DNA of 64,000 nucleotides. Source: a virus. The position numbers and the translations under genes were made by a program. The notes under the pieces are model-generated. The model worked only from the letters and a program-made list of their open reading frames with translations, ran no database searches and was not told the DNA's origin. Numbering within the stretch: position 1 is the stretch's first letter; each line of letters starts with the position of its first letter. Positions 3,462 to 59,253 of the stretch are shown piece after piece. The stretch lies in the IMG/VR virus record IMGVR_UViG_3300028392_000045, positions 33,265-97,264 of that record; one strand, given 5' to 3'.

Positions 3462-3493
3462 CAAAGATAAACTATGGCTTTCTTATTTCCAAA
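3462..3493 (-). promoter_or_regulatory. Bacteroidota primary-sigma promoter for the homing endonuclease
   Basis: Minus strand TTTG-N20-TATCTTTG matches the TTTG/TAnnTTTG consensus. Confidence 0.75.
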
Positions 3494-3518
3494 TGTTTCT
3501 TACATTAATCCCACAGAA

Positions 3519-21413: not shown

Positions 21414-21599
21414 ATGCAAGTAATTAGAATGCTTGCTTTTTTATTTTTATTATATAAATCAGAAATTATGAGAATATATCACAATTCAAATTATTTTAGT
21501 TTTGCAAACCATAAAAATATTGGATTTGGATTAGGAGCTTCTAATTTTTATGTAAGGCATACATTTGATAAAAAATCAATTAATATCATACTACTCTGA
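21414..21599 (+). CDS. Solo member of the microprotein family (start may be 21468)
   Basis: MRIYHNSNYF...KKSINIILL*. Confidence 0.5.
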   Translation: MQVIRMLAFLFLLYKSEIMRIYHNSNYFSFANHKNIGFGLGASNFYVRHTFDKKSINIILL

Positions 21600-22226: not shown

Positions 22227-22348
22227 AAATCGTACATATTGTGTATACTAGCTCTTTTTCTATTTCTAAAAACTTTATTGATTTCATGGAATTAAAGCAT
22301 TTAGAGGAACCAACTACTAGATGCACTCAAAAAATTATATTTACATGA
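22223..22348 (+). CDS. Solo member of the microprotein family
   Basis: MKIVHIVYTSSFSISKNFIDFMELKHLEEPTTRCTQKIIFT*, ATGA-coupled at both ends. Confidence 0.55.
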   Translation: MKIVHIVYTSSFSISKNFIDFMELKHLEEPTTRCTQKIIFT

Positions 22349-25125: not shown

Positions 25126-25278
25126 ATGAAGTGCAAATTCTGTAATCAAAAAATGACAAAATCTTGTCAGAATAGACAAGCAGCTAATTCTTGTGGGTTT
25201 AAGGCTAAAAAGGAGGGTAACAACAAAAAGTCTCTAAAAGAAATTAATAGAGATGCAAAAAATAAAACAAGGCCATGA
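25126..25278 (+). CDS. 50 aa Cys4 basic protein
   Basis: MKCKFCNQKMTKSCQNRQAANSCG...; same Cys spacing as 45078 ORF. Confidence 0.55.
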   Translation: MKCKFCNQKMTKSCQNRQAANSCGFKAKKEGNNKKSLKEINRDAKNKTRP

Positions 25279-25698
25279 AAATAATTGACTTTTTTGTTAC
25301 AGATGCATTTTTAGTAGATTATGGAGTACTTTGTCCCGACTTATCTAAATATGCTCATCTAAATATTAAAATAAAATCCATTTTTGATGTGTTTGAAATC
25401 TCATCAGATGGGATTATAGAAATTTCAGATGTAACGAGCAAAACAATTATACTAATATGAAATTATGTTATTTCTTTCAAGCTGCAAGATTTATGAAACC
25501 TTATAATGAGTCTTCTCTTTCTAGGATATACAACATAGTAGATGATGTTGATCCTGTAGATACAAAAAATATAATATGCATTTAAATATGAAGTATCAAT
25601 TTGCTAGATTTAGAAGTTATAAAGATTTTCTAAATTTAGAAATTAGTCTAGTGAAAAACGTTGATAATTTAGACACAAAAAATATAATCTTAATATGA
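25275..25698 (+). CDS. Microprotein array A (3 ORFs: 25275, 25457, 25576)
   Basis: Ends ...SKTIILI*, ...VDPVDTKNIICI*, ...VDNLDTKNIILI*; overlapping start/stop junctions. Confidence 0.7.
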
Positions 25699-25955: not shown

Positions 25956-28009
25956 TAGGTCTGGATATAGAAACCAGTAGAAAATACAAAAAAGGTACAT
26001 TTCCTGAAGAAGTATATAGACCAGGATTAGATCCATATACTTCAGTTGCCTGTCTGATGCAGCTAGGGACTTTAGAAAAGGTTTTTGTAATAGATACTCG
26101 TGTTATTGACATAAGTGCTTTAAAACCGATCCTAGAGTCTCCTAGCATAGTTAAAGTAGGTCATAATCTACAATTCGAATACAAACACATTCTACATAAT
26201 TTTTGTATTAAACTAGATAACATCTGGGATACCATGATATGTGAAAAAGTATTGTATAATGGTTTAGGTTTATCTAATAGTCTTGAAGCATTAGCTAATA
26301 GATATTTAGGTGTAGAATCTATAGAGACTATTAATCTATTTAATGAAGAAAAAGAAGATAAACACTCTGTCGAACCTTTAGATTCGACTGACAGTCTGGA
26401 TCTCCCATCCAGACAGTATATAGATAAATCAACTAGATTAGGTTTTATCAATATAGGAGATAGCCCATTCACCATAAAACAAATTATGTATGGTGCTGAT
26501 GATATTGTATATCCTCTTAAAATTAAGAAAATTCAAGAAAAAGGAAGAGAAGTTGGAGGAGTAATTTGGAATCCAAAAAATGCTTTCAAATTAGAAAATG
26601 CTACTGTATTAGTTTTAGCAGATATGTCACTTAGGGGTATTGGTTTTTCCAGAACTGTATGGTTAGATATTCTTAGTAAACAGTTACCTTTATTTGAGAA
26701 AAGAAAACAAATTCTTAATAAATGGGTAGAAGATAATGTACCTAAATTTTGTAGATCAGGTGATTTATTCTCTTCAATTCCTACTTGTGCTGTAGATTGG
26801 CAATCACCTACCCAAGTTGTAAAGCTTTTTAAGTATTTAGGAATATGTCCTAGAGAGGTATCTAAATCTACTAAAAAGTTAGAATACACAGTAGGTGCTA
26901 AAGAACTTCTAAAGACCATGAGAGCTGAATTACAAGAAAGCTATAGTTATAATAAGGATAAACCTATAGATAGCTTAGAAGAGCTTAAATTGGCTTATTT
27001 GCTATTTAAAAAATCACAAATGTCTTGTACTACTTTTGGTGCAAGCTGGTTAGATTATGTACATCCTATTACAGGAAGAGTACATTCTAACTTTAATCAG
27101 TATATGAACTCCTCTCGATTATCATCAAATAATCCAAATATACAAAATTTACCTCAAGGAGAATACAGAGATGCATTTATTCCTTCACCTTTAACTGACT
27201 TTATATCAGTAGATTATGCAAGTCAAGAGGTAAGAATTTTAGCTGATGTTTCTGCTAATCCAGTAATGGAAGATTTCTTTGTAAATGGTTCAAAAATATT
27301 TGGGGACGATATGCATTCATTTTCTGCTACTCAAATGATGAGAGCAAAGACAGGTGATGATACTATTGTAGTTTCTAAGAAATCACATCCCAAAGAAAGA
27401 AATATATCTAAGTCGTTAACCTTCTCATTAAGCTATGGAGGTTCAGCGCATTCAATCAAATTTAAGTTAGGATTAGAGTTAGAAGAAACTGAAACATTTA
27501 TTCAGTCTTTTTTTGATGGCTTTCCTGGACTTGAAGAAGATTTTACAAATAGAAAGAAATTCGCCATAGATAATGGCTATATAATATTAGACAAAGCAAC
27601 AGATAGACGCTACTTTTTTCCTCAGTATGAAAAAATGAAAAAAGCAGAAGAGTTAGCTAAATCTTACTACACAAGAGATATGTCTGCTGAAGAAAGAGCA
27701 GAAGTTAAATTAATACCAGAAGTAAAAGAAGCTTGGAAAACTTTTTTTACTCTAAAAGGAAAGCTAGAAAGAAGAGCATTAAATTATGGAATTCAAGGTC
27801 TTGCTGCCGGAATGACAAAATTAGCTTTAGTACTACTATATAAAGCAGGAATAGCACTTGTTTCTTGTGTACATGATGAAATATGTGCAGAAGGAAATGA
27901 AAAAGATGCAAAAACTATAGAAAGACTGATGATAGAGGCAGGAAAATACTTTTGTAAACGAGTTCCAATGGGCGCAGAAGCATCTGTAGGAGATAAATGG
28001 ATACATTGA
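25862..28009 (+). CDS. polA: Family A DNA polymerase with 3'-5' exonuclease domain
   Basis: Exo motifs LDIET, GHNLQFE, YGADD; polymerase motif A DYASQEVR, B RNISKSLTFSLSYG, C VHDE. Confidence 0.95.
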   Translation: MEILFIGNQLFNECKTSTIEEAVSYFSNQSIIGLDIETSRKYKKGTFPEEVYRPGLDPYTSVACLMQLGTLEKVFVIDTRVIDISALKPILESPSIVKVGHNLQFEYKHILHNFCIKLDNIWDTMICEKVLYNGLGLSNSLEALANRYLGVESIETINLFNEEKEDKHSVEPLDSTDSLDLPSRQYIDKSTRLGFINIGDSPFTIKQIMYGADDIVYPLKIKKIQEKGREVGGVIWNPKNAFKLENATVLVLADMSLRGIGFSRTVWLDILSKQLPLFEKRKQILNKWVEDNVPKFCRSGDLFSSIPTCAVDWQSPTQVVKLFKYLGICPREVSKSTKKLEYTVGAKELLKTMRAELQESYSYNKDKPIDSLEELKLAYLLFKKSQMSCTTFGASWLDYVHPITGRVHSNFNQYMNSSRLSSNNPNIQNLPQGEYRDAFIPSPLTDFISVDYASQEVRILADVSANPVMEDFFVNGSKIFGDDMHSFSATQMMRAKTGDDTIVVSKKSHPKERNISKSLTFSLSYGGSAHSIKFKLGLELEETETFIQSFFDGFPGLEEDFTNRKKFAIDNGYIILDKATDRRYFFPQYEKMKKAEELAKSYYTRDMSAEERAEVKLIPEVKEAWKTFFTLKGKLERRALNYGIQGLAAGMTKLALVLLYKAGIALVSCVHDEICAEGNEKDAKTIERLMIEAGKYFCKRVPMGAEASVGDKWIH
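26367..26416. repeat. 50-bp double-hairpin element inside polA
   Basis: ctGTCGAACCTTTAGATTCGACtg-a-caGTCTGGATCTCCCATCCAGACag. Confidence 0.7.
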
Positions 28010-28825
28010 AAATTATACTTTACTATCATGGGACGGATAACAAGACTTCAATGCAATTTGCGATGTTGGATGTTAGAGAAAGTGTAGCAAGATTGGAAGC
28101 AAAAGTGAGAAATAAAAAACAAAACTTAATAATAGTATGAAATTGGTAGGACAACTTGGTGATGTCAGTTACAATAGTAGCAAATACATGAATAGACCAG
28201 ATAATTTAAGATATTTGTCTAATTTAGGGATTACTGTAGATTATGTTTTATCTCAATTTATGTTATTTATATGAGCTTAATAGTAAATTATTGTGGAGGA
28301 AGATTTACTACTAAAATGGAATCAGAATTTCAATTACATAGTTGTTGGTGGGATGAAAATCCTATTTTTGTATATGATTATACAGGCCAATTTATAAACT
28401 TAATTTATTAACTTTTAAACTAAAGGTTATGTACTTTTTCCTAATTGAGTATACTATTGGACAAGAATGGAAACATAAAACTGTTAGAGCAGATAATGCT
28501 TTTATGGCTAAAATGAAAGCTCCATTTGGTGCTAGGAATATTAAAGCTTATAAGGTAGCGTCATGAATTTATTAAACCACAATCTTGGGTCTGCTTATCA
28601 TAACTGCTATGATCAAGTAAAATACATATTTTATAAAAGTTCTAATTTGCCACCTTATTATCCTAGCAATAGTACTCAAATCTTAATTTTATCAAAGTAC
28701 AATATTTTTACTTTCGTGATTGCTACTATAATATGATAGAAGGTATGAAATATCCTTGTCCCATTGATTATTACATCCACAAAAACAAATACTATATTTC
28801 AAATCAAATAATCTTAATAACATGA
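28006..28825 (+). CDS. Microprotein array B (28006 TTG, 28137, 28271, 28563, 28691 ATC) plus an unrelated 45 aa ORF at 28429
   Basis: Ends ...KQNLIIV*, ...QFMLFI*, ...QFINLIY*, ...NQIILIT*. Confidence 0.65.
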
Positions 28826-29533: not shown

Positions 29534-30377
29534 ATGAATATTAGAATGACTTACATATTAGCAGATTTTAATAAATTTGTTTTTAAGGCTAATAACTATA
29601 GAACTGTATGCTTAAAGCCTCAAAAATGGTGTGCTAATATAGAATTAGGAACTGAATCAGAAGCTTGTTTAATAATAAAGCTATGAAGTTACGTATTTAT
29701 TACACTGGTCATTGTTATTACCCATATGAAGAAATGCTTAAAAGATTTTCTAAAAGGCCAGTAAGTACTGATATAAATCTTTGGAGTGATTACTACGAAC
29801 AATTTAGTAAAACACATCCTTCTAAAACTGATATAATAGTAACAATATGAAGATAGTAATTTTCTATACTAAAACAAGTTATCAAGATGCTTATTACTTA
29901 AATTTTTTAAAATTAAGCAAAGATCTTGCTATTTCTTTTAACGATATTTTTGATTCAGAAGGATGTAGATTAATAATAAAATGAAATTAGAAAATCGCTT
30001 TTTTACTACTTCTTATCGTGAATATTATGGAGCATATAAAAGTCATTTTATAAAAGAACCAAGATATTATTTTCTAATTAGAGCAACAGAAAATCTTAAT
30101 AATATGCTGATATGGATTTAAAATTATGTTTATACCTAAAAAATTATTTATCAGACTATTATAAAGTGTTTAATTTTGAATACAGTAATAGTGGAACTAT
30201 TGAACCAGGATTTTTTACTGAAACTCAAATAATAGTAAAATTATGATAATACTTATTTATTCTAAGAGGGATAGATACAATACATCAAATTTTGAAATAG
30301 CCTTAGACACACTTACAAGTCCTTTACTTGTTAGTTTTCATCTTAAACATAATACTCGTTTAATTACATTCATATGA
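29534..30377 (+). CDS. Microprotein array C (6 ORFs: 29534, 29683, 29847, 29981, 30112, 30243)
   Basis: Ends CLIIKL*, DIIVTI*, CRLIIK*, NMLIWI*, QIIVKL*, RLITFI*; every junction overlaps, last one coupled to the helicase. Confidence 0.75.
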
Positions 30378-34315: not shown

Positions 34316-34924
34316 ATGGTACAATTTTCTGAAAGTCGTAAAGCATTAATGACTAAGTTAGCGGCTATCCAAGCTTTAGAGTTGGCAGCAGTTAAAAATG
34401 CTACAAATCCTGCATACAAAACTGGTAAGAATCCTTCGGGTTCAAAGTATGCTGATTTAAACTCAATTCTTGAGACTTTAATTCCTGAATTGAATAAGGT
34501 AGGTCTTGTATTATGTGGTTTTCCTACTGTAGAAGGTTTAATGATATTACTTACTGATGTAGAATCAGAAGAGTATTTATCATTTGTCTATCCTCTTGCA
34601 ATTCAAGGACAAACGCCACAAGCTATTGGCAGTCAAATTACTTACAGTTGTAGGTATGCTTTCCGTACATTATTTAATTTACAAGCAGAGGATGACGATG
34701 GAAATGCTGCATCTGGTATTCCTGTAGTAACTACAGTAAATCCTACTACAACTGGAGCAGCATCTTCTGAGCCTTCTAATTGGATTAATGCTGGAAATTT
34801 CCCTGAATTACAGGAAAAAATCACATCAGGTCAATACAAATCCATGAAAGACATTCGTGCAGATTATAAAATCTCAAAAGCAATGTCTGATCAAATTCTA
34901 GCAAAATGGCCGGAACTGTCATAA
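34316..34924 (+). CDS. ERF-family ssDNA annealing protein
   Basis: KNATNP...SKYADL, QAIGSQITY.CRY, EDDDGN. Confidence 0.9.
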   Translation: MVQFSESRKALMTKLAAIQALELAAVKNATNPAYKTGKNPSGSKYADLNSILETLIPELNKVGLVLCGFPTVEGLMILLTDVESEEYLSFVYPLAIQGQTPQAIGSQITYSCRYAFRTLFNLQAEDDDGNAASGIPVVTTVNPTTTGAASSEPSNWINAGNFPELQEKITSGQYKSMKDIRADYKISKAMSDQILAKWPELS

Positions 34925-42929: not shown

Positions 42930-43185
42930 GCAAACATATGCTTATTCGCATGTCCATTTTAGAGTATTATCAAATAAAGCAGATATTATATTCTGGACTA
43001 TGAACTACAAAATAAAGTCTAAAAAATATAAACAAGCTTTTGAAGTAGACGATAAAATAATTCCTTATTTAGTATTTACTCAAAGTGAATTATATACTGA
43101 AGGACAAATTCTTGTATTTATTAAGAAAGCGTATGAAATTTATTCAGCAGATCTTTTTTATAAAGATTTAAACTGTCATTTATGA
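42919..43185 (+). CDS. Hypothetical protein
   Basis: ORF track. Confidence 0.5.
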   Translation: MMIEQTYAYSHVHFRVLSNKADIIFWTMNYKIKSKKYKQAFEVDDKIIPYLVFTQSELYTEGQILVFIKKAYEIYSADLFYKDLNCHL

Positions 43186-43619
43186 TTGAGTACAAAAAAG
43201 GAGACATTTTTAATTCTGGATGTTATGCTTTTGTAAATCCAGTAAATACAGCAGGAGTTATGGGGAAAGGTCTTGCATTACATTTCAAGAAAAATTTTCC
43301 TATTAATTACCAGACTTACAAATTGGCATGTGATAATCAATCCTTTCAAATAGGACAGTTATTGTATGTTACAGAAAACAAGCATTTGATTATTAACTTT
43401 CCTACTAAAAAAGACTGGAGGCTGAAATCCAACTATGAATACATAGAACTAGGATTAAAAGCTCTTAGACAGTTCCTCTTTGATGCGCAAATTGATTCTA
43501 TAGCTATTCCTGCTATAGGCTGTGGAGAAGGTGGATTACTTTGGAGTAAGGTGAAACTAATGATAGAAAAATATTTAGGAATTTTAGAATGTAAAATTGT
43601 AGTATATGAACCTAATTAA
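43182..43619 (+). CDS. Macro domain protein (Poa1p/DarG-like)
   Basis: KGDIF, VNPVNTAGVMGKGLA, INFPTKKDW, PAIGCGEGGL.W. Confidence 0.92.
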   Translation: MIEYKKGDIFNSGCYAFVNPVNTAGVMGKGLALHFKKNFPINYQTYKLACDNQSFQIGQLLYVTENKHLIINFPTKKDWRLKSNYEYIELGLKALRQFLFDAQIDSIAIPAIGCGEGGLLWSKVKLMIEKYLGILECKIVVYEPN

Positions 43620-44722: not shown

Positions 44723-45076
44723 ATGCCAGATGCACATGAAAAGTTAGCTGCTGCTATACAAATAGATCCTGAGATAGGTGCAGAATGTCAACGGCTAGTA
44801 GATATAGCTGTATTACATCAAAAAACTATTAAAGGATTTGAGGATGAAATGTTTGAGTTAGAGAAACTAAACACAACAGACAGAACTACTTTAAAAAGTA
44901 GAGGTGGTGCTTATAATACTGTACAAACTCAAGATAAAGTAGCGAATGTTCTTAATGGCAGAATTAGAGCAAGAATTGTATCTTTGGAAGAGATTGGTAA
45001 TTCTATTACCAAACGATACGAGCTGTACAAAACTCAATTGGATAATATTAAAGATTACCTAACAGACGTAATGTAG
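44723..45076 (+). CDS. Coiled-coil hypothetical protein
   Basis: Heptad-rich ORF. Confidence 0.55.
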   Translation: MPDAHEKLAAAIQIDPEIGAECQRLVDIAVLHQKTIKGFEDEMFELEKLNTTDRTTLKSRGGAYNTVQTQDKVANVLNGRIRARIVSLEEIGNSITKRYELYKTQLDNIKDYLTDVM

Positions 45077-46026: not shown

Positions 46027-46068
46027 GGGGGTAGATACTGTGTAAAAAGCAGGAGGCTACCCCTTTTT
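46027..46068 (+). terminator. Intrinsic terminator
   Basis: GGGGTAG/CTACCCC plus T-run. Confidence 0.6.
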
Positions 46069-46080
46069 AATTTGTAAATT

Positions 46081-47156
46081 ATGGAATTAAAAAAAGAAGA
46101 AGGACATTTATGCTATCATATGAGTGCTTATCACATGATACATTACTCATATAGATTTCATATTTATCAGACTTTTATTATTTTAGGCACAGACGATACT
46201 GTATTAATAGGAATGATATGATAATTAAATCAGGTGGTTTATACATTAGCTATTTTGCTTATCATTGTAGCTTTCTTACAAAAGAAATTAGTTTTACATA
46301 CCCCATCAGGAAAGTAAGTATTTCTGATGAATCAACTTCTTTAATGCTAATAAAAATATGAATTTACAGGCTTATGAAAGTTTTCTATTACATGATAGCT
46401 ATTATCAAGAACTAGAAAACCTATTCGAATTTTTTCCTTATAGTGATATATATTTTGTGGATAATACTTTTTCACATTCAATTATTTTAACATGAAAATA
46501 CTTGTACGTAATGACTAGATGGGAGATCACTCTTCTGCTCATTATGTAAAACTCACTTTATGTTGGTCAGATATAAGAATAGATAACTTAACAAAAAAAT
46601 TGATAGTATGTGTGTAATCTTGAATAATAGTTATGTACACTATGATAAATATATTTATCGAAAGTCTATAATATTAAATATAGTACCAGCACATCCATTC
46701 AATGTGTTTACAAAAAGAAGTACAGCATCAAAATTAATAGTAATATGCTGATAAAAGGCCATGCAAGTGTTCTCTGTTTTTATATGGATAAAGACAGAAT
46801 AAAAAATTACATCGTTACAGGAGTAAAAACTTTTGGTAGTGTTAAGTCAAGTAGATACTATGAAATAACTCATACAATTATTATATTATGAGAATAATAT
46901 GTGTATCTGATAGTGGTAAATATTTTTACGAGCAGAAAAATTTTGATAAAATAGAATGGTGCTCTTATGGTTCAATGTTAGGTGATCGTAATTACACTAA
47001 TGCAATTATATTATGCGAATCAAAACTATACTTATAGGAATCAATTTTCTTCATGTAGACATTTCTAGTATTAATTTAATATTTCAAGATATTAAAATGC
47101 TAGATCATTTTACAGCAGTCTATCCTGGCTGTTCACAAATTATAAATTTAAACTGA
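46081..47156 (+). CDS. Microprotein array D (8 units: 46081, 46218, 46358, 46492, 46608, 46745, 46888, 47013)
   Basis: Ends VLIGMI*, LMLIKI*, SIILT*, KLIVCV*, KLIVIC*, TIIIL*, AIILC..., QIINLN*; all junctions overlap. Confidence 0.75.
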
Positions 47157-47461
47157 TGAGAGAGATAAACATTCCCGAAAGCTTGAAAGAGCAAATTATT
47201 GAAATGCGTAACATGGCAGGTATTTCGATAGAGCCAGCTAAAACGACTCACGATCGTCTACATTCATTTCTTTCTGGTGAGCCTAACGATCAACTGCAAA
47301 AAGTAATGAATGTTTGTATGAAAGCTTATAAGCCTTATATGACAGTATCTCCATTAATGTTACAGTCCTATGGTGTGGCTATGTACTGCTTACCAGAATG
47401 TAATGATACAGAGCTACTAAAAATTGCTAAAGAGATTTATGAGACGTTAAGTCACATGTAA
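47156..47461 (+). CDS. Hypothetical protein interrupting the arrays
   Basis: ORF track; TGATG coupling. Confidence 0.6.
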   Translation: MREINIPESLKEQIIEMRNMAGISIEPAKTTHDRLHSFLSGEPNDQLQKVMNVCMKAYKPYMTVSPLMLQSYGVAMYCLPECNDTELLKIAKEIYETLSHM

Positions 47462-47493
47462 TTTTAAATTTCAAAATCTTTAATTTTAAAAAC

Positions 47494-47643
47494 ATGAAAA
47501 AGAAAACCAGAAACATCAATATAGAAGAATTGGCTATTGTCAATATTCTAATTTTTACAATCGGATTATGCATGAGTTCTTTAATGGGACTTGTATTTTG
47601 TGGGTTGTATACTTTCTTTTCGTTAGTAGAATTTGACAAATGA
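47494..47643 (+). CDS. 49 aa membrane protein
   Basis: MKKKTRNINIEELAIVNILIFTIGLCMSSLMGLVFCGLYTFFSLVEFDK. Confidence 0.55.
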   Translation: MKKKTRNINIEELAIVNILIFTIGLCMSSLMGLVFCGLYTFFSLVEFDK

Positions 47644-50600
47644 AATTGACAAAACATTATTATAAACCTATTTTATTTGATAAAAGAATTACGGATATAT
47701 TAAGAGTAGATATATTTGATAATATTTTAGGACAAGGAAAATTTTTTACTCCTATAATGGTATTGATATGATGCTGAAAACAAACTATGTGAATTTTACT
47801 TACCATCATGGTTATTTTTACTTTGCATCTAAAAGTGCGCAACCTATACAAGGTAGATATACTAGTAATCATGAATCTTATGATGAAGCAAATTTAATAG
47901 TAATAATATGAAAATACAATTTAGAATATCAGGCATAGCTTATTTCCTAGACAAACAAAAATCAGGATTAAGTAATCCTAGTGAAGATTTAAAATATTTT
48001 GCAAAATGGAATACTAAAGAATTGATACTATGGAACTGAATCTACATTATGTACCATTCTTCTATGGATCAATAATTACAAGAACTGATTTTATAAGATT
48101 TCAATTGGATGGTGAGTATCGCATTGAACACTTTATCAAAACGTCAACTTACCTGGATGCAGCTATATTTGAGGAGGTAGACGATAGTGCTTTTTTGATT
48201 TTAGTATAACTGAAAAATTATGCAAGTAATCTTAATCAGACCAAGTTATCATCCTTGTAATTATTTAATGCCTTATTATGTTAGAAATGCGTCATCAATT
48301 GACTTAACTTTACTATGTTACTTACGCATTCCTAGTCATGGTAATATCATCACACAAATACATTAATATGCATTTAGAATACTTTTACAATAGTATAGGC
48401 TATTATGATAATGAGGTAAACATAAATTTAGAACTTCTTCCTAACTGTAGTCCAATAGAAAAAGCTCTTACATCAATTTTATGGGATGCAAAATTAATTA
48501 TAGCTATATGAACATAAAAACATACTTAACTAATCGTACAAAGCATTATAAAATGAGTTTTGACTCTGATATTGCTAGAGGTATATATAATGCAAAAAGA
48601 AGTAATAGGTTTCACTCAACTTTTCTAATATGTTTATAGTAAATAAATATGGATGCGGAGAGTTTTGGTATAAACAGACACTATTTCTGTATTATGACCA
48701 TTTAGATGAAATATATTACGGATTAAAACTAATAGAATGAAACTATATACTTACAATCCAAGTATTACACACTGCCATCATAATAGACACAGCTTCTTTA
48801 ATCAGTCAAATACATTTTTTATTAGAGTATTTGGTATTAGTGAAGACTTTACTAACACAATAATTATAATATGAAACTATACTCTTATTATAGGTTTTCT
48901 TTTTATAACAGTTACCAGCGCCAATGTAAAAATATAGTAAAAGATGATTATATTCTTATTGATTCTATTGATCCAGATGCTAGTACACTATTAATACTAA
49001 TCTAATGAAGTTAAAATTATTACAATCAGGTGTAGGATACCATCAAAAGAATATCCATATAATAAATTCTACTGCCTTCTTAGGGATTTTTCATATCTCA
49101 AATAATGTATATTTAAATAACTCAATGTTAGCATGGATCTAAAAGCTATTACAGTAGGAAATGGATATACCGATTATCTAGTCCATTACCAATTTAATTC
49201 AGTGATGAGATATCCTACCAAATTCACTATCAAATTCACAAATAAAATACTTAATAATCTAATTTGTATCCAATGATGATAATAGCTAAATATACTCTGC
49301 ACCATTTTGATTTAAGTCAACATCACAGCAATCTTAATGATAATAGATTTTGTCCTATTCATCCATTAGATATTGATGGAAGTATTAGTGTAATGACAAA
49401 AAGATTAAGCAACAAAATAATTCTAGCATGAGTATAGATATATTTAGAGCTAGACATTGTTTTGGCAGTTTAATGCTAAGTACAATAACTCACAATTATA
49501 TTTATCCATCTGTTAATTATGGAAGTTATTCTTACAGAGCAAATCTAATAATAAATATATGAAAATAAATCTAGTGTTATTAGCACGACCAAAGCTTTAT
49601 AGACCTGTAGCTTTTCAAAATTATAAAGCTTATTTACCTTTAGAAAATAAAGAATTTAATTTGCAAATTTGTATACAATGAGAATACATCCATCAAAATT
49701 CAATAATCATTATTTCTCTAGGAGAAATTATAAATCAGAACCTAATAAATGTTTGTTGTATATAGGCTATTTACTTTATGGAACTGTAATAATAGAAATA
49801 TGATTTTATTTAGAAATGATTTTCATACTTATTATTCTTTACACATATCTCATATTTGGATTGAATATCCTAATTGTAGTTGGCTTCTTGTAGATAGTCC
49901 AGCAAAAACTAAAACATCTAATTTAATATTGTTATGATGCTAAGAGTTAAAAAGATGCCTACTAATTTTATAAATAGACAACACTTTTATAAAGAGTCAT
50001 GGTGGACATTAGGGCAAATAAATCATCTGAATAGCCATTCCAATACAAAAATAATTTTGATATGAAAATTAAAAGAGGAAGGTTTCTAAGTGCTTATTTT
50101 ATGCATGTATCAAATTTTTCAAATATTCCTAATTTAGATATTAATTTAAAAGTAAGCTATTTTTCACATACTTGTAAACTTAAATTAATATAATGGAATT
50201 AGATTGCAGATATTTTGGGGCTTCTCATTATAAAATTGATCCTGCTGCTCATAAAACTAATACTGGAATTTATTATATATCTGGTAAACCTAATGGACTT
50301 ACAAAAAATTTAATATGGATATGAATGATCGGTACAGAGCTAGGAAGCATAAAGTAAGATATGAGAAAATAGATAAAAATCTTGTGTACGACAGGGATGG
50401 ATGGAAATGCTATATCTGTGGTATTTTCATCTCTCCTAGTCCTGGCTATGACTTACCTTACAATGCTACCTTAGATCATGTAATACCTATGTCTAAAGGA
50501 GGAGACCATACTTATGATAATGTTAGAGCTTGCTGCTATTCCTGTAATCAGAAAAAAGATGACTCATTGTGAATCTAAAAGACTTTACTCAAAGCTACCT

Positions 50601-51384
50601 ATGTTATTACTATGATCAAGAATATGTTTGGAGTAATAATGGTTTTAGCTGTTATAAAACAGAAATTTTAAATATCTCAAGGGCAGATGGCTACTTAATA
50701 ATAGAAATATGAATTTAAGAACACAATATAAATATGCAAATTTCCTTTCCTTATGTGATGTAACTGAATTTTGGAGAGCTGGAATGTATTTTGGATATAG
50801 GAATAAAACTAATTTAATAATACTATTATGAAAATAACTTATCATGTATTTGATTCTAGCTTTGAAGATACATACAGATATATTCGTGCTAATATAAATA
50901 ATAGCTTAGAACAATCTCCTTTAGTTTACCTAACTGATACTAGTCATTTAATTTTAATCTAATGCACTTAACTGTATATTACACAACACCTTGGTTTTCT
51001 ATAAAAATACAACGGCCTTTAATTAAATCCATATTTACTAGTATGAACATAAATATGTATAATCATCTGATTACTCATAATAGCATAAAAGACAATACTA
51101 AATTATTAAAACTTGAATTATGCCATTACTATGAAATTAAATATATACAATAATTTTACTGGATACTTTAGTTCTGAAGTATTAAGAAATAATGCAGTTT
51201 ATTACACGTATTATGTATCTGAAAAAGCAACATCACTTAATAAAAATTTAATACTAATATGAAACTAGTAAACTATCATGATTATCAAGCATACATTTTT
51301 AGACATATCCCATCAAATAGCTTAAGTAAATGTGATATTGTAAAACATTGTAAAGTACATAAAAATTTACTTTTCTTTATCTAA
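47640..51384 (+). CDS. Microprotein array E (26 ORFs plus embedded HNH gene)
   Basis: Starts 47640, 47768, 47908, 48030, 48220, 48368, 48508, 48630, 48737, 48871, 49005, 49133, 49273, 49428, 49559, 49678, 49800, 49934, 50062, 50193, 50569, 50709, 50828, 50962, 51131, 51259; all open, 36-63 aa. Confidence 0.8.
50315..50572 (+). CDS. HNH endonuclease
   Basis: RDGWKCYICG...TLDHVIPMSKGG.H...N....C..CN..K. Confidence 0.92.
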   Translation: MDMNDRYRARKHKVRYEKIDKNLVYDRDGWKCYICGIFISPSPGYDLPYNATLDHVIPMSKGGDHTYDNVRACCYSCNQKKDDSL

Positions 51385-51431: not shown

Positions 51432-52349
51432 TCATGTTCGTATATATTTGAGAGTCAATCCAATTCCAGCACTTCCTTTATTTAAACCTTCAGGATATTT
51501 AGTACCTAATAAATTAATCCAATAGTCTTCTTTATTTTTTAATTCATGGGCTTTACCTTTTTCTAATTCTTTTATAGATAACAAATTCATGTCTTTGCCT
51601 GTTAAGAATTCAGTTAATTTAGTATTATTTCTCTTTTTAAGCACAGTTTCTTTATGTGCTCCAAGTCTTGTAGATAATCGTCTTGTAGTTAATCCTACAT
51701 AAGGTATTACTTCATTATCATATACTAATTGATAGATAAACCCTTCTGATTCAGGATGTACACTTTTATTACTACATGCAGAACAACCTCTATTTTTTGA
51801 AAGAATATTACAAGGTTTAGTTTCAAAGCTAGTTTTACATTCTTTACATGTGACTTCTACTTTGCCTAATCTTCTAAAAGGATATTCTATTTCTCTAAAA
51901 TCATAAATGTCACCATTTCGCTCAATACTTTTTTCTACAAAAGAGTCAAATGATTTTCTTGTTATGTGGCCTGATATTAAACTTCCACATTTAGAACATC
52001 CTCTTCCTTCTAAATGATCTTTAGCTGTTTGCTCAAAGTCCCCATGATCTTTACAAGTTATTATCAATTTTTTCTTCCCTCCTACATACACAGATTTAGT
52101 ATAGTTATATCTACCTTTGTGTTTTTCTATTGCTCTATTTATCCAGTAAGATGTTTTATCTATTGCACATTCTATTGTAGGTTTAGATCTAGTTAAACTT
52201 TGAGCTTGAACTTCGAGTAATCCATAATGATCTTGTACTAAAATCTTATTTCTTTGCCTTTTAAATTCACCAATAATTGTTAATTGTGGATTTGCTTGTG
52301 CAACTCTTTTTGTAAAATTTTCTAGTATTAATTCAGTAATACGTGTCAT
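51432..52349 (-). CDS. Homing endonuclease: Zn-ribbon (DUF723-like) repeats plus C-terminal GIY-YIG domain
   Basis: CKDHGDF...HL.G.GCSKC, CKEC...GCSAC; FIYQL...YVGLT...RL..H...E...GLN. Confidence 0.85.
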   Translation of the reverse strand: MTRITELILENFTKRVAQANPQLTIIGEFKRQRNKILVQDHYGLLEVQAQSLTRSKPTIECAIDKTSYWINRAIEKHKGRYNYTKSVYVGGKKKLIITCKDHGDFEQTAKDHLEGRGCSKCGSLISGHITRKSFDSFVEKSIERNGDIYDFREIEYPFRRLGKVEVTCKECKTSFETKPCNILSKNRGCSACSNKSVHPESEGFIYQLVYDNEVIPYVGLTTRRLSTRLGAHKETVLKKRNNTKLTEFLTGKDMNLLSIKELEKGKAHELKNKEDYWINLLGTKYPEGLNKGSAGIGLTLKYIRT

Positions 52350-52365: not shown

Positions 52366-55300
52366 TTACTTATTTTTGTCTACATATAAATCTTCAAGAT
52401 TATATAAAGGGGAAAGTTGTTTGTGTTTCAGGAAGTTATTAGCTCCTTTAGGATCTTGGAATAGAGTATATCCTTTAATACCAGGAATAAGCTGTAATAG
52501 AAATTTCTCTCTTTTACTCAGCCCTTCATACTTACCTGACTCTATTAGCTCTCCTGAAAACAACTCCGTAAAGTTGGTAATTAACTCAAGATCTCTAGCA
52601 GGTACAATAGGATCTTTGATAGCATTAATTAATTCAGTAGGGTTATAGAAAGAAGATACTTCAAGTAAAGCTCTGTTACTTTGATAAGCTAGTAAATCCA
52701 TAAACAAATCATCCTCGTCATCATCTCCACTATTAAGAGCTAGAGCTATAACAGTAAATGCAGAAATCATCAATAATTCTAGCACTACTCTTTTTAGATT
52801 TTCTTTCTGATAATCCTCTAACTCATTCCAATTAGCTAATAGAGATTTTATTTGACTTATTTTTTCTTTAGGCATAAAGTATTTACCTACAAGACTTATA
52901 GCTGACTGATAGGCAAATGTACCAGCAGTTCTATACATGCCTTCAGTCATATCTTGTAAAGTAAAATCATAACCTTTAGTTTTTAATCTTCTTGACATAC
53001 CTTCAAAAAGCCAACCTCTATGTAAACCTACCATAGCAAATACAGAGTGCTGATAGATAGCTGCTTTGTCTTCTGGTGATAATGCTCCATCTACTTGTGA
53101 TGTAATAGTTTTAATCCTTGATGTAAGGTTATCTATTACAGACTGTGACATACTGTGAATAGCTGTACCATCAGCAGTATTAATCATAGAGTAAGCGGAT
53201 ACCATTTTATCGAAGTCTAATCCTGCTCTTTGTGCTTCTTTAGCAGTATAGAATTTACCTTCATGCATTCTAAAGTTATCAAGTACTGAAATCATTACAA
53301 TAGCTTTAGAGAAATAATCTCCAGCTTGATAACCATACATTAAAGTCTTATCTGGTTGATTACGCATCAATACATGCTTGTCTAGGTCATTAAATAGATT
53401 ACGCATATCTTCACCTAAACCAAAAAAACGCATTAGAGTGCTAATCCTATCTGTGGATCTATACTTCTCGTGTGAGTTAAGTATACTAGGTAGCATACTA
53501 AAGAATTCTTTATTAGCAAATGCAGAAGATTTTACTGTAGTATATTTTCCTATTAAAGATTCTATAGTAGCAAAGACCTTAGTACTAATTAAGTTAGAGG
53601 TCATAGTAATAAAGTTCAAACCTAAGTTTTTACTTCTTACCCAGCCACTTAATCTATCTACTAACTTAGATACGTTTACATCATTACCTAGAATTTCTAC
53701 AGTATAGTCGTCTCTTTCTTTACCTGAAATATGTACATCTAGGAAATTCTTTAATGCAGTATAAGACCAAGTAGACTCACCTGACTTCTGTTCTTTACCT
53801 ACTAGTCGTCTAGTTTTAGATAACTGTAGAATATTTTCAAAAGTAGATAGCTTCTTTGACTTCTCTATATAGTTAGTAGCCATCTGCTTGTAAGCTACCA
53901 TAGAAGAAAGTATATCAGAGCTAATTCTTGATGGATCTTTTAGCTTACTGATAAAACGTAAAGGAGCTTGTTCTAGTAGAGTACCATCATTTAACTTAAT
54001 CTCATTATTAAACTCTGTATCATCTTCCTTTCTAGTAATAGCTCCACCTACATTAGCTTTAAGTCTTTTATACAAATCAGGATCTTTATTAAACATAGCA
54101 TCTAACATACTTTCGTAGGTTTGAGGAGCTAGTCTAATATTAGCTTCAGGTAAAGTAAAGTCAATTTTTCTCTTTTCTTTTTTCAAGTATTCTAATACTT
54201 CTTGCTGTCTAGCAGTTAGTTTGGCATAATCCTTATTAGTATAGTCTATTGTAGTAAATTTTTCTTTACCTCGTTTTACTTCACTACCATCTGATGGAGA
54301 TACAAGCTCACCTTTAAAATATTTTATAGAACCATCTTCATTAGTTGCAGTATTTAAAGACCACCATAGACTAAATTGATTAGGACTAAGATGTATTTTT
54401 CTAAGGTTAATAATTTCTTGTGCATTATCAACTACTTTAGTATTATACTTATTCCAGTTATCAATTGCCCTATTATAACTTTTTAGTCTTTCTAATTCTT
54501 TTGCATAGAAAGTTCTAGTAGCAGCATCTAATCCAGGATCAGTCATAAGTAGTTTATAACTCTGAATTAATTTTTGTTCTTTAGCTCTTTCAGTAAAATC
54601 TTGAGAAAATCTATATTGAGTATTTAAATTTTGATAAAACTCTTTTTTATTTTGTTCCCATTGAGTATAGTGTAATCTATGTAACCAGTATCCAGTTTTC
54701 TTTCTTACAGTTCTTACTTTACCAGTTTTTTTGTCTTGTTCTACATAATTATGATATTCGTATACCCAGCTCATATCTTTACCAATAAAATCTTCTACAC
54801 CTGTCATAAAGCTATCAGCCCAAGCCATTGTAGTTCTTCTAATGGCATTATTCAAATCGAATACAAGCTTATGTACTATACGATTTAAAGTATCTGTATT
54901 ATTTCTAATAGGAGCAAACCAAGTCTCTAAGAAATTAGAATCTTTATAAAAGAACTTTAATCCTTTTTTCCAATCCCATCCTATTTTAGCTTGAATCTCT
55001 TCATCAGTTAAGTCAGGAAATTCTTTTCTAAGTCCATCACCAACTTCTCCTACTCCATCTTCATATACCAATTGAGCATAGGCTTGCTGTATTACATCAA
55101 ATCTATTCTTATGGTTAGTAATAAGTTTATCTAATACCATCTTTCTAGCTGAACCTATAATACTATCTTGACCTATAATAGATTTTAACTCTTCTAAGAA
55201 TGGTCTATAATAACCAATAAAAGCTGCTAATTGAGTGACTAAATCATTATTAGTTATTGCAGTACTATTTCTATCTCCTAAATACATACCATGACTAGAT

Positions 55301-58300
55301 TTCTTTACATCAAAGTAATTCTCTAGCCATTTAAAAGCACTATTTAAATCGTTATTAAGAAAGCCTAAAAACTTATAAATACCAAGACCATTGACGTTAC
55401 CTTCTAGTTCTTCAGCAAGAGACTTAATTTGTTTGTCTACAGACTTAATTGCATCTTCAGGTATGTTATTTCTTTTACGTAATGCTTTTTGTCTTTCTTT
55501 CAAAGAGCTAATCTGACCTTTTAGATAATTCTCTTCATCCTGTAGACTATAGTAGATTTCATCTCTTACTACATTCAAAGTAGGTTCTTGTAAAAAAGTA
55601 TCAGTAATATTTTCTAAGTAGTCTGTAAGTTCTTTAGTCTTAAATAAATTTAGGAATTTTCTCCATAAACGCATTAGCCAAGTATCTACACGAATAGGAG
55701 CTAACTTATTTTTTAATACTTGATTTAGCTGCTTACCTAGAATTTCTATCCTGGCCTTACGGTCTGCCACTTTATCATCTAAATTAAAATCTTTCTTATA
55801 TCTTTCTTTGTAGGTTTCATACTCAGAAAAGAAAGGACTTTGCTCAACTAGATCATAAGCTTTTTGAAATTCAGTAGTTCCTTCACTATTCATTACAGCA
55901 ATGTGAGCTACTTCTTCTCCTAACTGCTCTACAGTATAGCCATTACCTAGAGCTACTACTTTCTTAGTAAAGTCAACTAAAGCATTTACATCTCTTAAAT
56001 TAAGATTTGACTCTTTTGCATAATCATCTAGTGTAGATAACTTTAATCCTGCTTTAGTCAATAAATTCAGTAATTTAGTCTCTACTTCTGATAAATTTTT
56101 AGTAGGTGTAGTATCTATATTACCTAGTGGATCTGAAGATAAATTAGGTATTTTTTGAAATGGAAGTTCATCAGGCTCAAAAGGAAGTGCAGTATTAGGT
56201 CTTGTACTAGATAGTTTAACTTCACTTCTAATTAAACTTCTAGGATATTTTTTAGCTACTTCTTTTAAAGCTGCTATTTTAGTATTAATTAAAGCTTGAT
56301 TAGTGTATTCTTTTTCTTTTACTTGCAGATTTTCTAGCTCCTCAGAATTAGTTTTTAAATAACTTTCCCAAACTTCATCAATTCCTAGTCCTACATCTGT
56401 CATATTAGTAATGTCATAATCTTCTACTTTAGTATTAAAAGGAGCATCATAAGGTACATTTTTCATAAACCAATTTCCATTTTGTTTATAAAACCATGTA
56501 TCATTTGCATAGCCTGTATACTGACTTTTTAATACAAATTTATCAGGTATAACTGTAGCTCTGGTATCTAATTTAGTTTTAACGCTGATAATGCTTTCTT
56601 TTATATTGTCTTTAGTTTGAGTAGGTTGAATACCTGAACTAACCCTATTGTTTTTAGTAATTTTAGGTGTAACTAACTTACCATACCTATGATCTAATAT
56701 TCTATTAATTCCATCAATAATTTTTTTAGTTTGATAAGGAATATCTTCATCATATTCTAATCTAAAATTATTGCCTGTAAGAGCTATACCCAACTCATTA
56801 TGATGATGTGCAAGATTGTCTATAATAGATGCTAGATTAGGTTGTACTACATCTATATTTTTTAAAGCTGGATATTTAGTATAGCTTACTCCGAGTAATT
56901 CAGATTTTTTATCTTTATTTACTTTTTCAGAAGCATCCCATACACTACCAGAATATACATCAGTATTAGCAGCCCATAAAATATCTTTAGATTGTGGGTA
57001 TATTTTAAATTTGATTTTACCACCTCCACCTTCTAAATGCCCTATTGTTTTATCTATAGGTTTAGTATAAGCAGAAATAGCAAATTGTCCTCCTGCTTTT
57101 TCATTATCTTCTATATGCTGTAATAAATTTTGCATCATAAGATCTACATCAAATGATGAGTAAGCACCTACTACAGAACTAAACTCTTGTCCTCTTGAAT
57201 ATACTTCTTCAGGGTTATATTGAATATTATTTATTTTTTTCCACTCGTCTATAATTTCTTTAGACTGTTCATATTCTTTGTTTTTTTCTATGAAATGATA
57301 TAATAAAGTGTTTTTTAAAGGAACTATTTGGAGATAAAAATCTAATATTTCTTGTGAATTTCCATATAATTCATCTTGGTATATATCATGTTTAGACCCA
57401 TCCTCAAACTCTAAATGGAATTTATCAGGACTTGGAGGTTCCCATTGATTTTCATCTGCCAAAAAGGTTGCTGGATCTCCTTCTATAAATTTAGCAGATT
57501 TCACCTTTTTACCTGTTATAGGATCTATTTTACCAATAATAGATTTTTTTTCTATTTTAACCTTATTTAAATCAACATCTTTAACATCTCTAGCTAATTT
57601 TCCAATATGATTACTTGCTTCTTGATAGGTTTTAAACTTCATATTATCAGGAGTAGTGTATTCTACTTCATATCCTGGAAGTATAAGCTTACTATTAGAA
57701 TAAGCTAATAAATCAGCTAAATCTTTTAATACTAGATTATCAGGAAGTTTATCTATTTCTACTTCTCTTTTAAATAATAGCTCTTTGATTAAAGATTTTA
57801 TCTCTTTTAATAGTCTTTTAAGTAGTGATATAAGCTTACCATCTTTTACTTTATCTAACCTATCAGCAGTCATCATACCAAGAAGTTCTACAATAGCTTC
57901 TTCTTGTTGTTCTTCTAATGTGTACTTTGTTTTTAAATCATTTTCAGTAATAATAAATTCATCTTTTGTAAAAAGATTCTCATTTAAAAAAGTTGATAAC
58001 CTTGTATTTGTATCATTAATTTGAATAAAATATCTTTTTGAACCAAATAAATTATCTGATGTGACTTTTGCACCAATTAAATCTGTTATTTTATTAATCC
58101 CCCAATCTTCAAAATCATGACGAAGATTATTATATTTATAAACATAATCTCTCTTAATCCTATCTAATACTTCTTTACCTCTACCATATTCAAGTTCTTT
58201 AAGTAAGTTTTGATATAGACTAGAAAAATTTTTCAAATACTCACTATTTAATTTATTCCATTCTTTACCATGTTCTTTAAAAGCTTCATTATACTCATCT

Positions 58301-59253
58301 TCTGACATAACACCTTTCATAAATGCAAAGTCAGGTTTATATCTATCTTTATTTTTTTGTACCCAATCTATAAAGTTATCTTTATTAAACTCTATATCAT
58401 TTTTATTTTTAATAGCTCTAATAATAGGGTGTCCTAATATCTCATGTATAGGCGAGTCTAATGTAGCATAAGCTAAGTTTATATAGGCTACTCCATCTTC
58501 AATCTTCCCTTTGTATTCTTTAGACCTATCTGATTCTATCTTATAAGGCATACCTATCCTATCTGCTAGTCTAGCAGCTAAGTCTCTAATAGTTTTTTCA
58601 GAAGCTATTATACCTTCATCATTACTATTTTGATAGTTAATATTAGATTGATTTTGTGCGTCTTGTTTTTTGCCCCAATCATATTTATTAATTAAATAAT
58701 CTAAGGCTGTAGCATGAGAAGGTTCTCCAAGTTCTTTATAATAAACAACAGGTTTATTTTTTAATTTACCAGATTGTAACCATTCTCTAATAAATTTATG
58801 TTGTTCAGGTTTAATAGTAGTTGTTGGAGAAAGTATCCATTCTATATATTTCTCAACACTTTCTTTTGTAGATTTAGTTCTTATTAATCCTTTTTGTATT
58901 TCACTTTCAACAGAACTAAAAGGATTACCAAATTGATTATTAGTACCATTAACTCTTAAAGAAAATATGCCACCAATAGATTTAGCATATTGTACTCCTG
59001 CTGTTTGATAAACAGATTGGATTATAACATTACCTTCTTTAGTTTTATTTCCCAGCTTAGAATAAATATTAGATACTGAAACAGTATCTTTTTTTACTAA
59101 AGTATTAGCCAATTGACTAGAATCAGGGAACTCTTGGCTATTATTTGAGTCCTGCCATACTTGAATTTTAGCAGCTACTACAATAGCAGGTAGATTCAAT
59201 TCTCTACTTAAAGCAATTACATCAGGATGATTGATATTAATACAAGAAGCCAT
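52366..59253 (-). CDS. Giant virion cargo/polyvalent protein (2295 aa)
   Basis: Adjacent to the vRNAP gene; DUF4326-like (FGNPFS...HATALDYL) and zincin-like (IHEILGH, GEEVAH) segments; long helical C-terminus. Confidence 0.7.
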   Translation of the reverse strand: MASCININHPDVIALSRELNLPAIVVAAKIQVWQDSNNSQEFPDSSQLANTLVKKDTVSVSNIYSKLGNKTKEGNVIIQSVYQTAGVQYAKSIGGIFSLRVNGTNNQFGNPFSSVESEIQKGLIRTKSTKESVEKYIEWILSPTTTIKPEQHKFIREWLQSGKLKNKPVVYYKELGEPSHATALDYLINKYDWGKKQDAQNQSNINYQNSNDEGIIASEKTIRDLAARLADRIGMPYKIESDRSKEYKGKIEDGVAYINLAYATLDSPIHEILGHPIIRAIKNKNDIEFNKDNFIDWVQKNKDRYKPDFAFMKGVMSEDEYNEAFKEHGKEWNKLNSEYLKNFSSLYQNLLKELEYGRGKEVLDRIKRDYVYKYNNLRHDFEDWGINKITDLIGAKVTSDNLFGSKRYFIQINDTNTRLSTFLNENLFTKDEFIITENDLKTKYTLEEQQEEAIVELLGMMTADRLDKVKDGKLISLLKRLLKEIKSLIKELLFKREVEIDKLPDNLVLKDLADLLAYSNSKLILPGYEVEYTTPDNMKFKTYQEASNHIGKLARDVKDVDLNKVKIEKKSIIGKIDPITGKKVKSAKFIEGDPATFLADENQWEPPSPDKFHLEFEDGSKHDIYQDELYGNSQEILDFYLQIVPLKNTLLYHFIEKNKEYEQSKEIIDEWKKINNIQYNPEEVYSRGQEFSSVVGAYSSFDVDLMMQNLLQHIEDNEKAGGQFAISAYTKPIDKTIGHLEGGGGKIKFKIYPQSKDILWAANTDVYSGSVWDASEKVNKDKKSELLGVSYTKYPALKNIDVVQPNLASIIDNLAHHHNELGIALTGNNFRLEYDEDIPYQTKKIIDGINRILDHRYGKLVTPKITKNNRVSSGIQPTQTKDNIKESIISVKTKLDTRATVIPDKFVLKSQYTGYANDTWFYKQNGNWFMKNVPYDAPFNTKVEDYDITNMTDVGLGIDEVWESYLKTNSEELENLQVKEKEYTNQALINTKIAALKEVAKKYPRSLIRSEVKLSSTRPNTALPFEPDELPFQKIPNLSSDPLGNIDTTPTKNLSEVETKLLNLLTKAGLKLSTLDDYAKESNLNLRDVNALVDFTKKVVALGNGYTVEQLGEEVAHIAVMNSEGTTEFQKAYDLVEQSPFFSEYETYKERYKKDFNLDDKVADRKARIEILGKQLNQVLKNKLAPIRVDTWLMRLWRKFLNLFKTKELTDYLENITDTFLQEPTLNVVRDEIYYSLQDEENYLKGQISSLKERQKALRKRNNIPEDAIKSVDKQIKSLAEELEGNVNGLGIYKFLGFLNNDLNSAFKWLENYFDVKKSSHGMYLGDRNSTAITNNDLVTQLAAFIGYYRPFLEELKSIIGQDSIIGSARKMVLDKLITNHKNRFDVIQQAYAQLVYEDGVGEVGDGLRKEFPDLTDEEIQAKIGWDWKKGLKFFYKDSNFLETWFAPIRNNTDTLNRIVHKLVFDLNNAIRRTTMAWADSFMTGVEDFIGKDMSWVYEYHNYVEQDKKTGKVRTVRKKTGYWLHRLHYTQWEQNKKEFYQNLNTQYRFSQDFTERAKEQKLIQSYKLLMTDPGLDAATRTFYAKELERLKSYNRAIDNWNKYNTKVVDNAQEIINLRKIHLSPNQFSLWWSLNTATNEDGSIKYFKGELVSPSDGSEVKRGKEKFTTIDYTNKDYAKLTARQQEVLEYLKKEKRKIDFTLPEANIRLAPQTYESMLDAMFNKDPDLYKRLKANVGGAITRKEDDTEFNNEIKLNDGTLLEQAPLRFISKLKDPSRISSDILSSMVAYKQMATNYIEKSKKLSTFENILQLSKTRRLVGKEQKSGESTWSYTALKNFLDVHISGKERDDYTVEILGNDVNVSKLVDRLSGWVRSKNLGLNFITMTSNLISTKVFATIESLIGKYTTVKSSAFANKEFFSMLPSILNSHEKYRSTDRISTLMRFFGLGEDMRNLFNDLDKHVLMRNQPDKTLMYGYQAGDYFSKAIVMISVLDNFRMHEGKFYTAKEAQRAGLDFDKMVSAYSMINTADGTAIHSMSQSVIDNLTSRIKTITSQVDGALSPEDKAAIYQHSVFAMVGLHRGWLFEGMSRRLKTKGYDFTLQDMTEGMYRTAGTFAYQSAISLVGKYFMPKEKISQIKSLLANWNELEDYQKENLKRVVLELLMISAFTVIALALNSGDDDEDDLFMDLLAYQSNRALLEVSSFYNPTELINAIKDPIVPARDLELITNFTELFSGELIESGKYEGLSKREKFLLQLIPGIKGYTLFQDPKGANNFLKHKQLSPLYNLEDLYVDKNK

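Follow-up and report, generated by a model that had tools for sequence, protein, structure and literature searches.

A tandem array of microprotein genes with conserved ends and unrelated middles in an uncultured freshwater crAss-like phage

Operons composed of many small, poorly conserved accessory genes are a recognized feature of the variable regions of large lytic phage genomes, the host-takeover module of SPO1 and the small early genes of T4 being two examples. The internal-protein locus of the T-even phages encodes small proteins that possess a conserved capsid-targeting sequence and are otherwise unrelated (PMC3012670), and the jumbo phages G and 121Q carry tandem arrays of more than 30 genes, the copies of which are described as very similar and have been ascribed to tandem duplication (Hua et al. 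2017, PMC5646251). Here we describe an array of very short, mutually unalignable genes at positions 46081-51384 of a 64,000-nucleotide stretch of viral DNA, which comprises bases 33265-97264 of IMG/VR record IMGVR_UViG_3300028392_000045 (97,264 bases in total, estimated 91% complete). This stretch is hereafter called the window, and coordinates are those of the window. An earlier reading of the sequence alone, referred to below as the original prediction, had described the array as a tandem series of hypervariable, translationally coupled microproteins.

Each of the described systems resembles this locus in part. The T-even internal proteins are likewise small proteins sharing only a short terminal sequence, at a locus that varies between phages, and the known members are counter-defence proteins; they are, however, a handful of late, packaged genes with an N-terminal signal cleaved by the head protease, whereas the window holds 46 units conserved at both ends and situated in the replication-strand block. 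The jumbo-phage arrays, similarly, exceed 30 tandem members of a single family, as does the present one with 34 in its main array and 46 in the window, but their copies are reported to be alike and their genomes several times larger, while here the genome is 97 kb and the genes, of approximately 135 nt, cannot be aligned save at their ends. The members of the SPO1 and T4 hyperplastic regions share no paralogy and are not arrayed regularly at a fixed unit length. Clustered regularly interspaced short palindromic repeat (CRISPR)-like arrays differ in that the junction repeats found here are only 44% identical and the 'spacers' carry a coding signal, and the targets of diversity-generating retroelements (DGRs) differ in that this locus has neither a reverse transcriptase nor a template/variable repeat pair and its unit middles are unalignable. 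Our literature searches yielded no account of such an array in crAss-like phages. What is new, then, is an undescribed family, on a scale unusual for a 97-kb genome and with clear dual coding at its junctions; the expansion of tandem paralogues in phages is already known.

Plus-strand open reading frames (ORFs) of at least 36 codons, 40 in number, cover 98.2% of the 5.3-kb array, compared with 37.3 +/- 7.7% (maximum 57%) in 300 dinucleotide shuffles (z ~8 for the array); coverage on the minus strand is 51%. The original claim of a region tiled by 34 plus-strand units is borne out by these figures, and the depletion of stop codons, which had been taken to imply selection for translation, is highly significant against the same shuffles. 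The reading frame rotates 0>2>1 at every junction except three. Coupling through ATGA-type overlaps in a single register, also proposed previously, accounts for most of the 33 junctions: 21 are ATGA (-4) overlaps, four overlap by 1 nt, and another four overlap by 7 or 10 nt in the same register. Unit lengths are concentrated at 43-47 amino acids (aa), that is, about 44 residues per gene. A position profile anchored at both ends recognizes 46 units in the window, near the 'about 50' first suggested, all of them on the plus strand, with one borderline match on the minus strand. Together the units occupy approximately 6% of the phage genome, and those outside the main array are listed in Table 1 with the other features of the region. 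The description of the array's content requires one amendment, since three ORFs that do not belong to the family (101 aa, 49 aa and an HNH endonuclease) and one decayed unit also lie within the stretch. In the decayed unit, an ATG-AAA-ATA start after 46495 meets a stop eight codons on, and this stretch is absent from a related strain (joint 46486>46603).

Table 1. Units of the microprotein family and other features in and around the array (window coordinates; a>b denotes a joint in a related strain).
Feature	Position	Strand	Remarks
Main array, units 1-8	46081..47156	+	Includes decayed unit, ~46491-46608; two-ended profile, junction analysis
101-aa ORF	47156..47461	+	Non-family; coupled into chain; no relatives found
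49-aa hydrophobic ORF	47494..47643	+	Non-family; ATGA-coupled to next unit
20 consecutive units	47640..50324	+	Longest unbroken run of the family
83-aa HNH endonuclease	50321..50572	+	PF01844, 6.5e-12; coupled by ATGA and GTGA to units on either side
Last 6 units of array	50569..51384	+	Final unit retains hydrophobic tail
Single unit	21468..21599	+	Right behind terminator-like hairpin
3-unit cluster	25275..25698	+	Directly upstream of DNA polymerase I gene
2 units	27997..28274	+	Overlap end of DNA polymerase I gene
5-unit cluster	29534..30246	+	Starts 15 nt past terminator-like hairpin
Two weak single candidates	22223-22348 and 16831-16992	+	
Strain joint	47643>47906		Two units skipped
Strain joint	48879>49132		Two units replaced by 130 nt
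Strain joint	50563>50701		One unit skipped, both runs
Intrinsic-terminator-like hairpin	46028..46075	+	8-bp G+C-rich stem and T run; -18.3 kcal/mol, z -2.2; ~6 nt before ATG of first unit
305-aa endonuclease	51432..52349	-	phrog_681; GIY-YIG-like motif by eye; between array and virion RNA polymerase gene
crass-type virion RNA polymerase gene	52366..59253	-	Converges on array; synteny anchor
ERF-family single-strand-annealing recombinase	34316..34924	+	PF04404, 1.1e-13

Codon usage provides a second line of evidence. It was scored in the unit middles only, with ends and stops excluded, using a model trained on the large genes of the phage. The annotated frame came out ahead in 39 of the 43 units, with a score of 0.41 bit per codon, which may be set against 0.50 bit per codon for the phage's real genes of 100-200 aa. 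Stop-free frames generated at random from a Markov model of the array reach only 0.08 bit per codon (frame 0 wins in 39%), and the coding signal of the units therefore does not arise simply from avoiding stops. At the third codon position the units are T-rich and G-poor, matching the large genes. Judged by their frames, codon usage and shared residues, the units are real coding genes of one family.

The features that unite this family lie mostly towards its two ends. Counted from the N-terminus, Leu or Ile occupies residue 3 in 41 of 45 units, Tyr occupies residue 7 in 15, and Tyr or Phe occupies residue 12 in 35 of 45; at the C-terminus, position -15 is hydrophobic in 31 units, -7 is Thr, Ser or Asn in 30, and -4 to -1 are mostly Ile, Leu or Val. 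The original prediction had recognized the shared ends, while overlooking residue 12, -7 and -15. When each unit in turn is left out of the two-ended profile, 34 of 44 score above the 99th percentile of a decoy set, 1,136 ORFs taken from AT-rich viral loci, and the interior profile positions alone also separate units from decoys. The codon of residue 12 lies 36 nt beyond the ATG, past any initiation signal. Outside these positions the middles are mutually unrelated, just as had been claimed: the mean local alignment score is 19.2, compared with 18.9 for shuffled sequences, one pair of 990 exceeds the 99.9% level of the null distribution, and the mean column identity among units is 17%. For the putative terminal beta-strand scaffold of the original prediction, structure prediction returned low confidence, both in an AlphaFold2 model of one unit with 19 paralogues as the alignment (predicted local distance difference test, pLDDT, 53) and in that of a 61-aa unit folded alone (pLDDT 41).

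Two explanations for short proteins with conserved ends are suggested by other systems. Some loci for ribosomally synthesized and post-translationally modified peptides (RiPPs) encode numerous short precursors in tandem, whose ends are conserved and whose cores vary, and the units, having the same arrangement, might be read as RiPP or bacteriocin-like precursors composed of a conserved recognition end and a variable core. We consider this very improbable, given that no maturase, protease or exporter family occurs among 30 proteins scanned against Pfam or PHROGs, and that neither a leader cleavage motif, Gly-Gly or otherwise, nor a Cys/Ser/Thr pattern is seen in the units. Alternatively, the conserved ends could be sorting signals that direct small proteins into the capsid, from which they would be ejected together with the DNA, in accordance with the T-even pattern of short conserved ends and unrelated bodies (PMC3012670) and with the ejection of packaged proteins, such as the virion RNA polymerase, by crass-type phages. 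The units, however, are encoded on the strand of the replication genes and not among the head and tail genes, and no Leu/Ile-x-Glu-type cleavage motif follows their N-terminal residues. A search of the units for an N-terminal signal of about 10 residues with a head-protease site was negative, only residues 1-3, 7 and 12 being conserved and no cleavage motif containing Glu being present. A role as virion cargo is accordingly accorded a low, though not negligible, probability.

At the DNA level, the junctions between units had been likened to a degenerate repeat separated by unique spacers. The junction consensus is TAATA-N-TAATA-TG-AAA, and windows at the junctions average 44% identity versus 32% mid-unit, reaching at most 67% over 48 nt. 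It could be supposed that this motif of about 25 nt is itself the functional element, as a protein-binding site, promoter, processing site or structured RNA, and that the open frames are a by-product. Its conservation, however, is periodic in the codons of the upstream unit: T fills the second positions (-1, -4, -7 and -10) in 25-30 of 39 units and A fills the third positions (-3, -6, -9 and -12) in 24-30, while the first positions are free to be A, T, C or G. A second position fixed as T beside a free first position is the mark of selection for hydrophobic residues. Furthermore, stop depletion and gene-like codon usage extend through the 110-nt 'spacers', the unit RNAs have neither an excess of structure (mean z 0.10) nor a match in Rfam, and the array is not enriched in promoter-like sites and contains no internal terminator-like sites. 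A purely DNA- or RNA-level repeat is already largely refuted by these observations, and its probability is slight in the extreme.

Comparison with the start regions of the large genes resolves the junction signal into two components. The large genes have no Shine-Dalgarno signal and have A at -12 and -11 in 77% and 74% of cases, a pattern described for Bacteroidota (PMC6847099); initiation in Flavobacterium johnsoniae was shown by Baez et al. to be enhanced by A at -3, -6, -12 and -13 (PMC6847099). The adenines at -12 and -11 are equally frequent in units and large genes, and A is likewise favoured at -6 and -3 in both. Ahead of the large genes, T is present at the second positions in only 27-38%; the T at +7, which is always found in the units, is also specific to them. 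Moreover, the genome prefers ATT (55%) over ATA (33%) for Ile, and the unit tails use NTA instead. Because the adenines are common to the large genes and the thymines are confined to the units, the tail of a unit is, on this pattern, doubly coded: T in the second position serves the unit's own protein, and the choice of NTA serves the start of the next gene. The final unit of the main array closes with Leu-Leu-Phe-Phe-Ile, the last four codons having T or C, not A, in third position; the units at 21468 and 48030 behave in the same manner. Since hydrophobic tails are thus kept in cluster-final units that have no downstream start, the shared ends are not solely AT-rich initiation regions. The degenerate repeat of the original prediction is therefore in part the generic adenine context of Bacteroidota initiation, and it is the second-position thymines and the T at +7 that belong to the units.

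Information on how the family changes comes from the X3 and X4 contigs, which represent a strain from a different study and show 85-95% identity to the array without a gap in any unit. The units shared with these contigs differ by 4.9-15.6%, compared with 5.9-12.9% for flanking genes including the polymerase. Units therefore mutate no faster than their neighbours, and their unrelatedness is best read as old divergence. The junctions of adjacent units are no more alike than those of distant ones. The lack of a reverse transcriptase, reported previously for the window, extends to the entire 97-kb record, in which PF00078 has no match while control genomes do match; a DGR template/variable repeat pair was not found, nor were long direct repeats, the best repeat families being 15-55 nt at 61-95% identity. 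In view of the missing reverse transcriptase, the flank-like divergence of shared units and the lack of closer similarity between neighbours, the ongoing diversifying mechanism that had been presumed to operate on the array finds no support. What distinguishes the strains is whole units. The joints lie within a few bases of unit starts (Table 1), and the best explanation is that the family changes by old divergence combined with the gain, loss and replacement of individual units at conserved junctions.

The closest accessible relative, IMGVR_UViG_3300017774_003070 (103.8 kb), is syntenic along its whole genome, with 60% identity at the C-terminus of the polymerase and approximately 45-50% for typical proteins. 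At the place of the array (~69.9-74.6 kb) it carries about 4.7 kb of unrelated genes of 95-144 aa, one of them helix-turn-helix-looking, and then a homologous HNH gene. The unit pattern has at most one chance match in this whole genome, and the unit profile matches nowhere in it, as opposed to 14 places in the window's own genome. As unrelated ordinary genes occupy the same slot, the array lies in an accessory region that varies within this phage group, and the units accordingly sit in the variable, accessory parts of a plus-strand early/replication gene block. The comparison took in this relative and four more distant ones, all of them without the family; one metagenome contig, of 7.7 kb, had too little flank. 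In this phage as many as 21 ORFs of 30-70 aa abut in a single chain, as against a maximum of three in five polymerase-anchored loci and at the left end of Cellulophaga phage phi14:2. The 'intergenic' transcribed regions of phi14:2 (NC_021806) were considered as a counterpart and dropped, because they have no unit-like tiling. One of them, 2904-4602, has been reported as a highly transcribed non-coding RNA; about ten small ORF annotations on both strands of this interval were deleted from the record in 2020. The virion RNA polymerase is 57-62% identical in 18 Logan/JGI relatives and one identical unit is present on an 88.7-kb contig, all of these contigs lying outside the comparison.

Database searches with the units returned, in essence, the units themselves. 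They belong to no described family in Pfam, where two chance-level matches (E~0.09) were the only ones among 31 units, or in PHROGs (0 families). Searching 50,697 phage records with the array for close or remote DNA similarity gave no match, nor did an exact 32-mer search of IMG/VR or, in usable form, the ESM Atlas. A word-indexed search of 5.8 billion proteins with the unit alignment found the phage's own units only, and so did a profile search of 1.84 billion representatives, at which size a 45-position profile is weak. No close relatives were found with the C-terminus of the virion RNA polymerase alone or with the 101-aa ORF as queries. A degenerate (IUPAC) pattern spanning two junctions retrieved 114 loci in IMG/VR and was set aside, as all were chance matches with no more than two unit-like ORFs per 3 kb. 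These empty searches of databases and relatives suggest that the family is confined to a narrow lineage or has diverged past detection.

The scattered and strain-variable distribution of the units invites an explanation in which they are selfish cassettes, that is, mobile or hitch-hiking small genes of little benefit to the phage that spread by junction recombination within and between phage genomes, perhaps aided by the HNH and GIY-YIG-like nucleases. Units do occupy at least five distinct sites, each of them a variable intergenic slot, whole units are present or absent between strains, and an HNH gene lies within the array with a strain-variable endonuclease adjoining it. A related-strain contig is without the 305-aa endonuclease gene (joint 51421>52421), which fits a mobile homing-type gene. 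Against this, neither a transposase nor an integrase is present, the HNH gene occurs in the closest relative without units, and all copies share one orientation and are joined into the translation chain of the host operon; a pure passenger, moreover, would need neither open frames nor adapted codon usage. We judge this explanation improbable.

The expression of the units may be influenced by a series of hairpins. G+C-rich plus-strand hairpins followed by a T run are found at 17567, 21405, 23591, 25101, 29519, 37828, 42247 and 46064, of which four of the eight precede microprotein clusters. Most lie 9-30 nt before the next start codon, a spacing too short to accommodate a promoter. Of the clusters, those at 21468 and 29534 begin 9-15 nt past such hairpins and that at 25275 lies 174 nt past one. 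As ordinary genes (23619 and 37841) likewise sit behind hairpins, these are read as general punctuation that damps read-through, and they may attenuate read-through or mark RNA ends. The position of clusters behind terminator-like hairpins is also what would be expected if the units were translated filler: functionless peptides, whose open frames shield a long read-through transcript from termination or decay or whose DNA pads the genome to length. That the middles are no more alike than shuffles, that their composition is near that of translated AT-rich DNA and that no fold is predicted all agree with such a proposal. It does not account, however, for the fixed length of 43-47 aa, the aromatic residue 12, the Thr or Ser at -7 or the hydrophobic tails of cluster-final units, none of which filler would need; codon usage is gene-like well past the level set by stop avoidance, and nothing essential lies downstream of the array on the plus strand. 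Translated filler is, in our estimation, a shade less probable even than selfish cassettes.

The explanation that we favour, with somewhat better than even confidence, is a lineage-specific expansion of a single microprotein family of about 44 codons, subject to unit-wise turnover and serving a host-directed accessory role. In this view, the main array would be read as one polycistronic message, along which ribosomes would terminate and restart at ATGA from unit to unit, each start also bearing its own adenine-rich Bacteroidota context, which would be written in the third positions (NTA codons) of the preceding tail. The products have a common framework of Met, a polar residue, Leu or Ile, an aromatic residue at 12, a hydrophobic residue at -15, Thr, Ser or Asn at -7 and a tail of four Ile, Leu or Val residues, with the remainder differing. 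Whole units would be exchanged at the junctions, probably by short-homology recombination, for which the ERF annealing protein is a candidate agent. By analogy with the small, fast-turnover genes of phage variable regions and with the T-even internal proteins, we favour a host-directed accessory role (takeover or counter-defence) in which each protein would present its own surface on the common frame.

A more specific version of this proposal sees the family as a natural repertoire of mini-binders, in which a conserved frame (N-terminal strand, aromatic 12, C-terminal hydrophobic strand) would display approximately 46 surfaces, each for a different host defence or housekeeping protein, re-dealt by unit swapping. 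It would be the phage equivalent of a diversified library of receptors or inhibitors, working without a hypermutation engine; we regard it as unlikely, if marginally less so than the cassette explanation.

Several considerations weigh against the favoured expansion of a host-directed family. Unit composition is, by our own estimate, near the chance expectation for AT-rich DNA, and constraint on the unit middles may accordingly be weak. The strain data are contigs, for most joints of which the intervening sequence is not known, such that deletion and replacement are not always separable, and the best 40 variant rows include none in the array, so the strain differences there come without codon positions. 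The modest identity of the junctions (the mean given above) makes them a poor substrate for ordinary homologous recombination, and it is for this reason that the ERF protein is named only as a candidate. The hairpins ahead of the clusters imply that expression may be low.

The genomic setting of the array is that of a crAss-like phage. DNA polymerase I and a 2,295-residue protein match the crAss-like phage polymerase and 'RNA-polymerase subunit', respectively, with identities of only 22-30%, and the public runs containing the array are freshwater metagenomes, none of the public runs listed being an RNA run. This low identity, together with the freshwater runs and the Bacteroidota-type starts, identifies the phage as a deep-branching freshwater member of the crAss-like group, and we infer a Bacteroidota host. 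Reassignment of TGA or TAG as a sense codon was entertained and dropped, given that the large genes are intact under code 11 and that the old frame closes soon past each junction. Within the same plus-strand block as the ERF gene are an RNA-ligase-family protein (33150-34313) and a ThiF-family (E1-like) protein (39481-40101). A weak PDDEXK-like (DUF3799) match, under the Pfam cut-off, is located at 40825-41673 (+), and this candidate and the ERF protein may together be a recombination pair belonging to the phage itself. A macro-domain protein (PF01661, 1.1e-13; phrog_335 'phosphatase') that could remove ADP-ribose marks is encoded at 43182-43619 (+), some 2.5 kb upstream of the array. Finally, 131 nt (44866-44998) within a 117-aa ORF (44723-45076) are swapped in the related strain for a diverged stretch of equal length, a local mosaic patch.

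The array illustrates that a considerable portion of a crAss-like genome may consist of genes that standard annotation misses or labels hypothetical and that fall outside every database family. In a host phylum that does without Shine-Dalgarno pairing, the C-terminal codons of a gene can, as seen here, serve two ends. If the units act on host proteins, a single phage would hold 46 natural variants on one small frame, and the family would provide a compact test bed for phage counter-defence and for the folding and binding of very small proteins.

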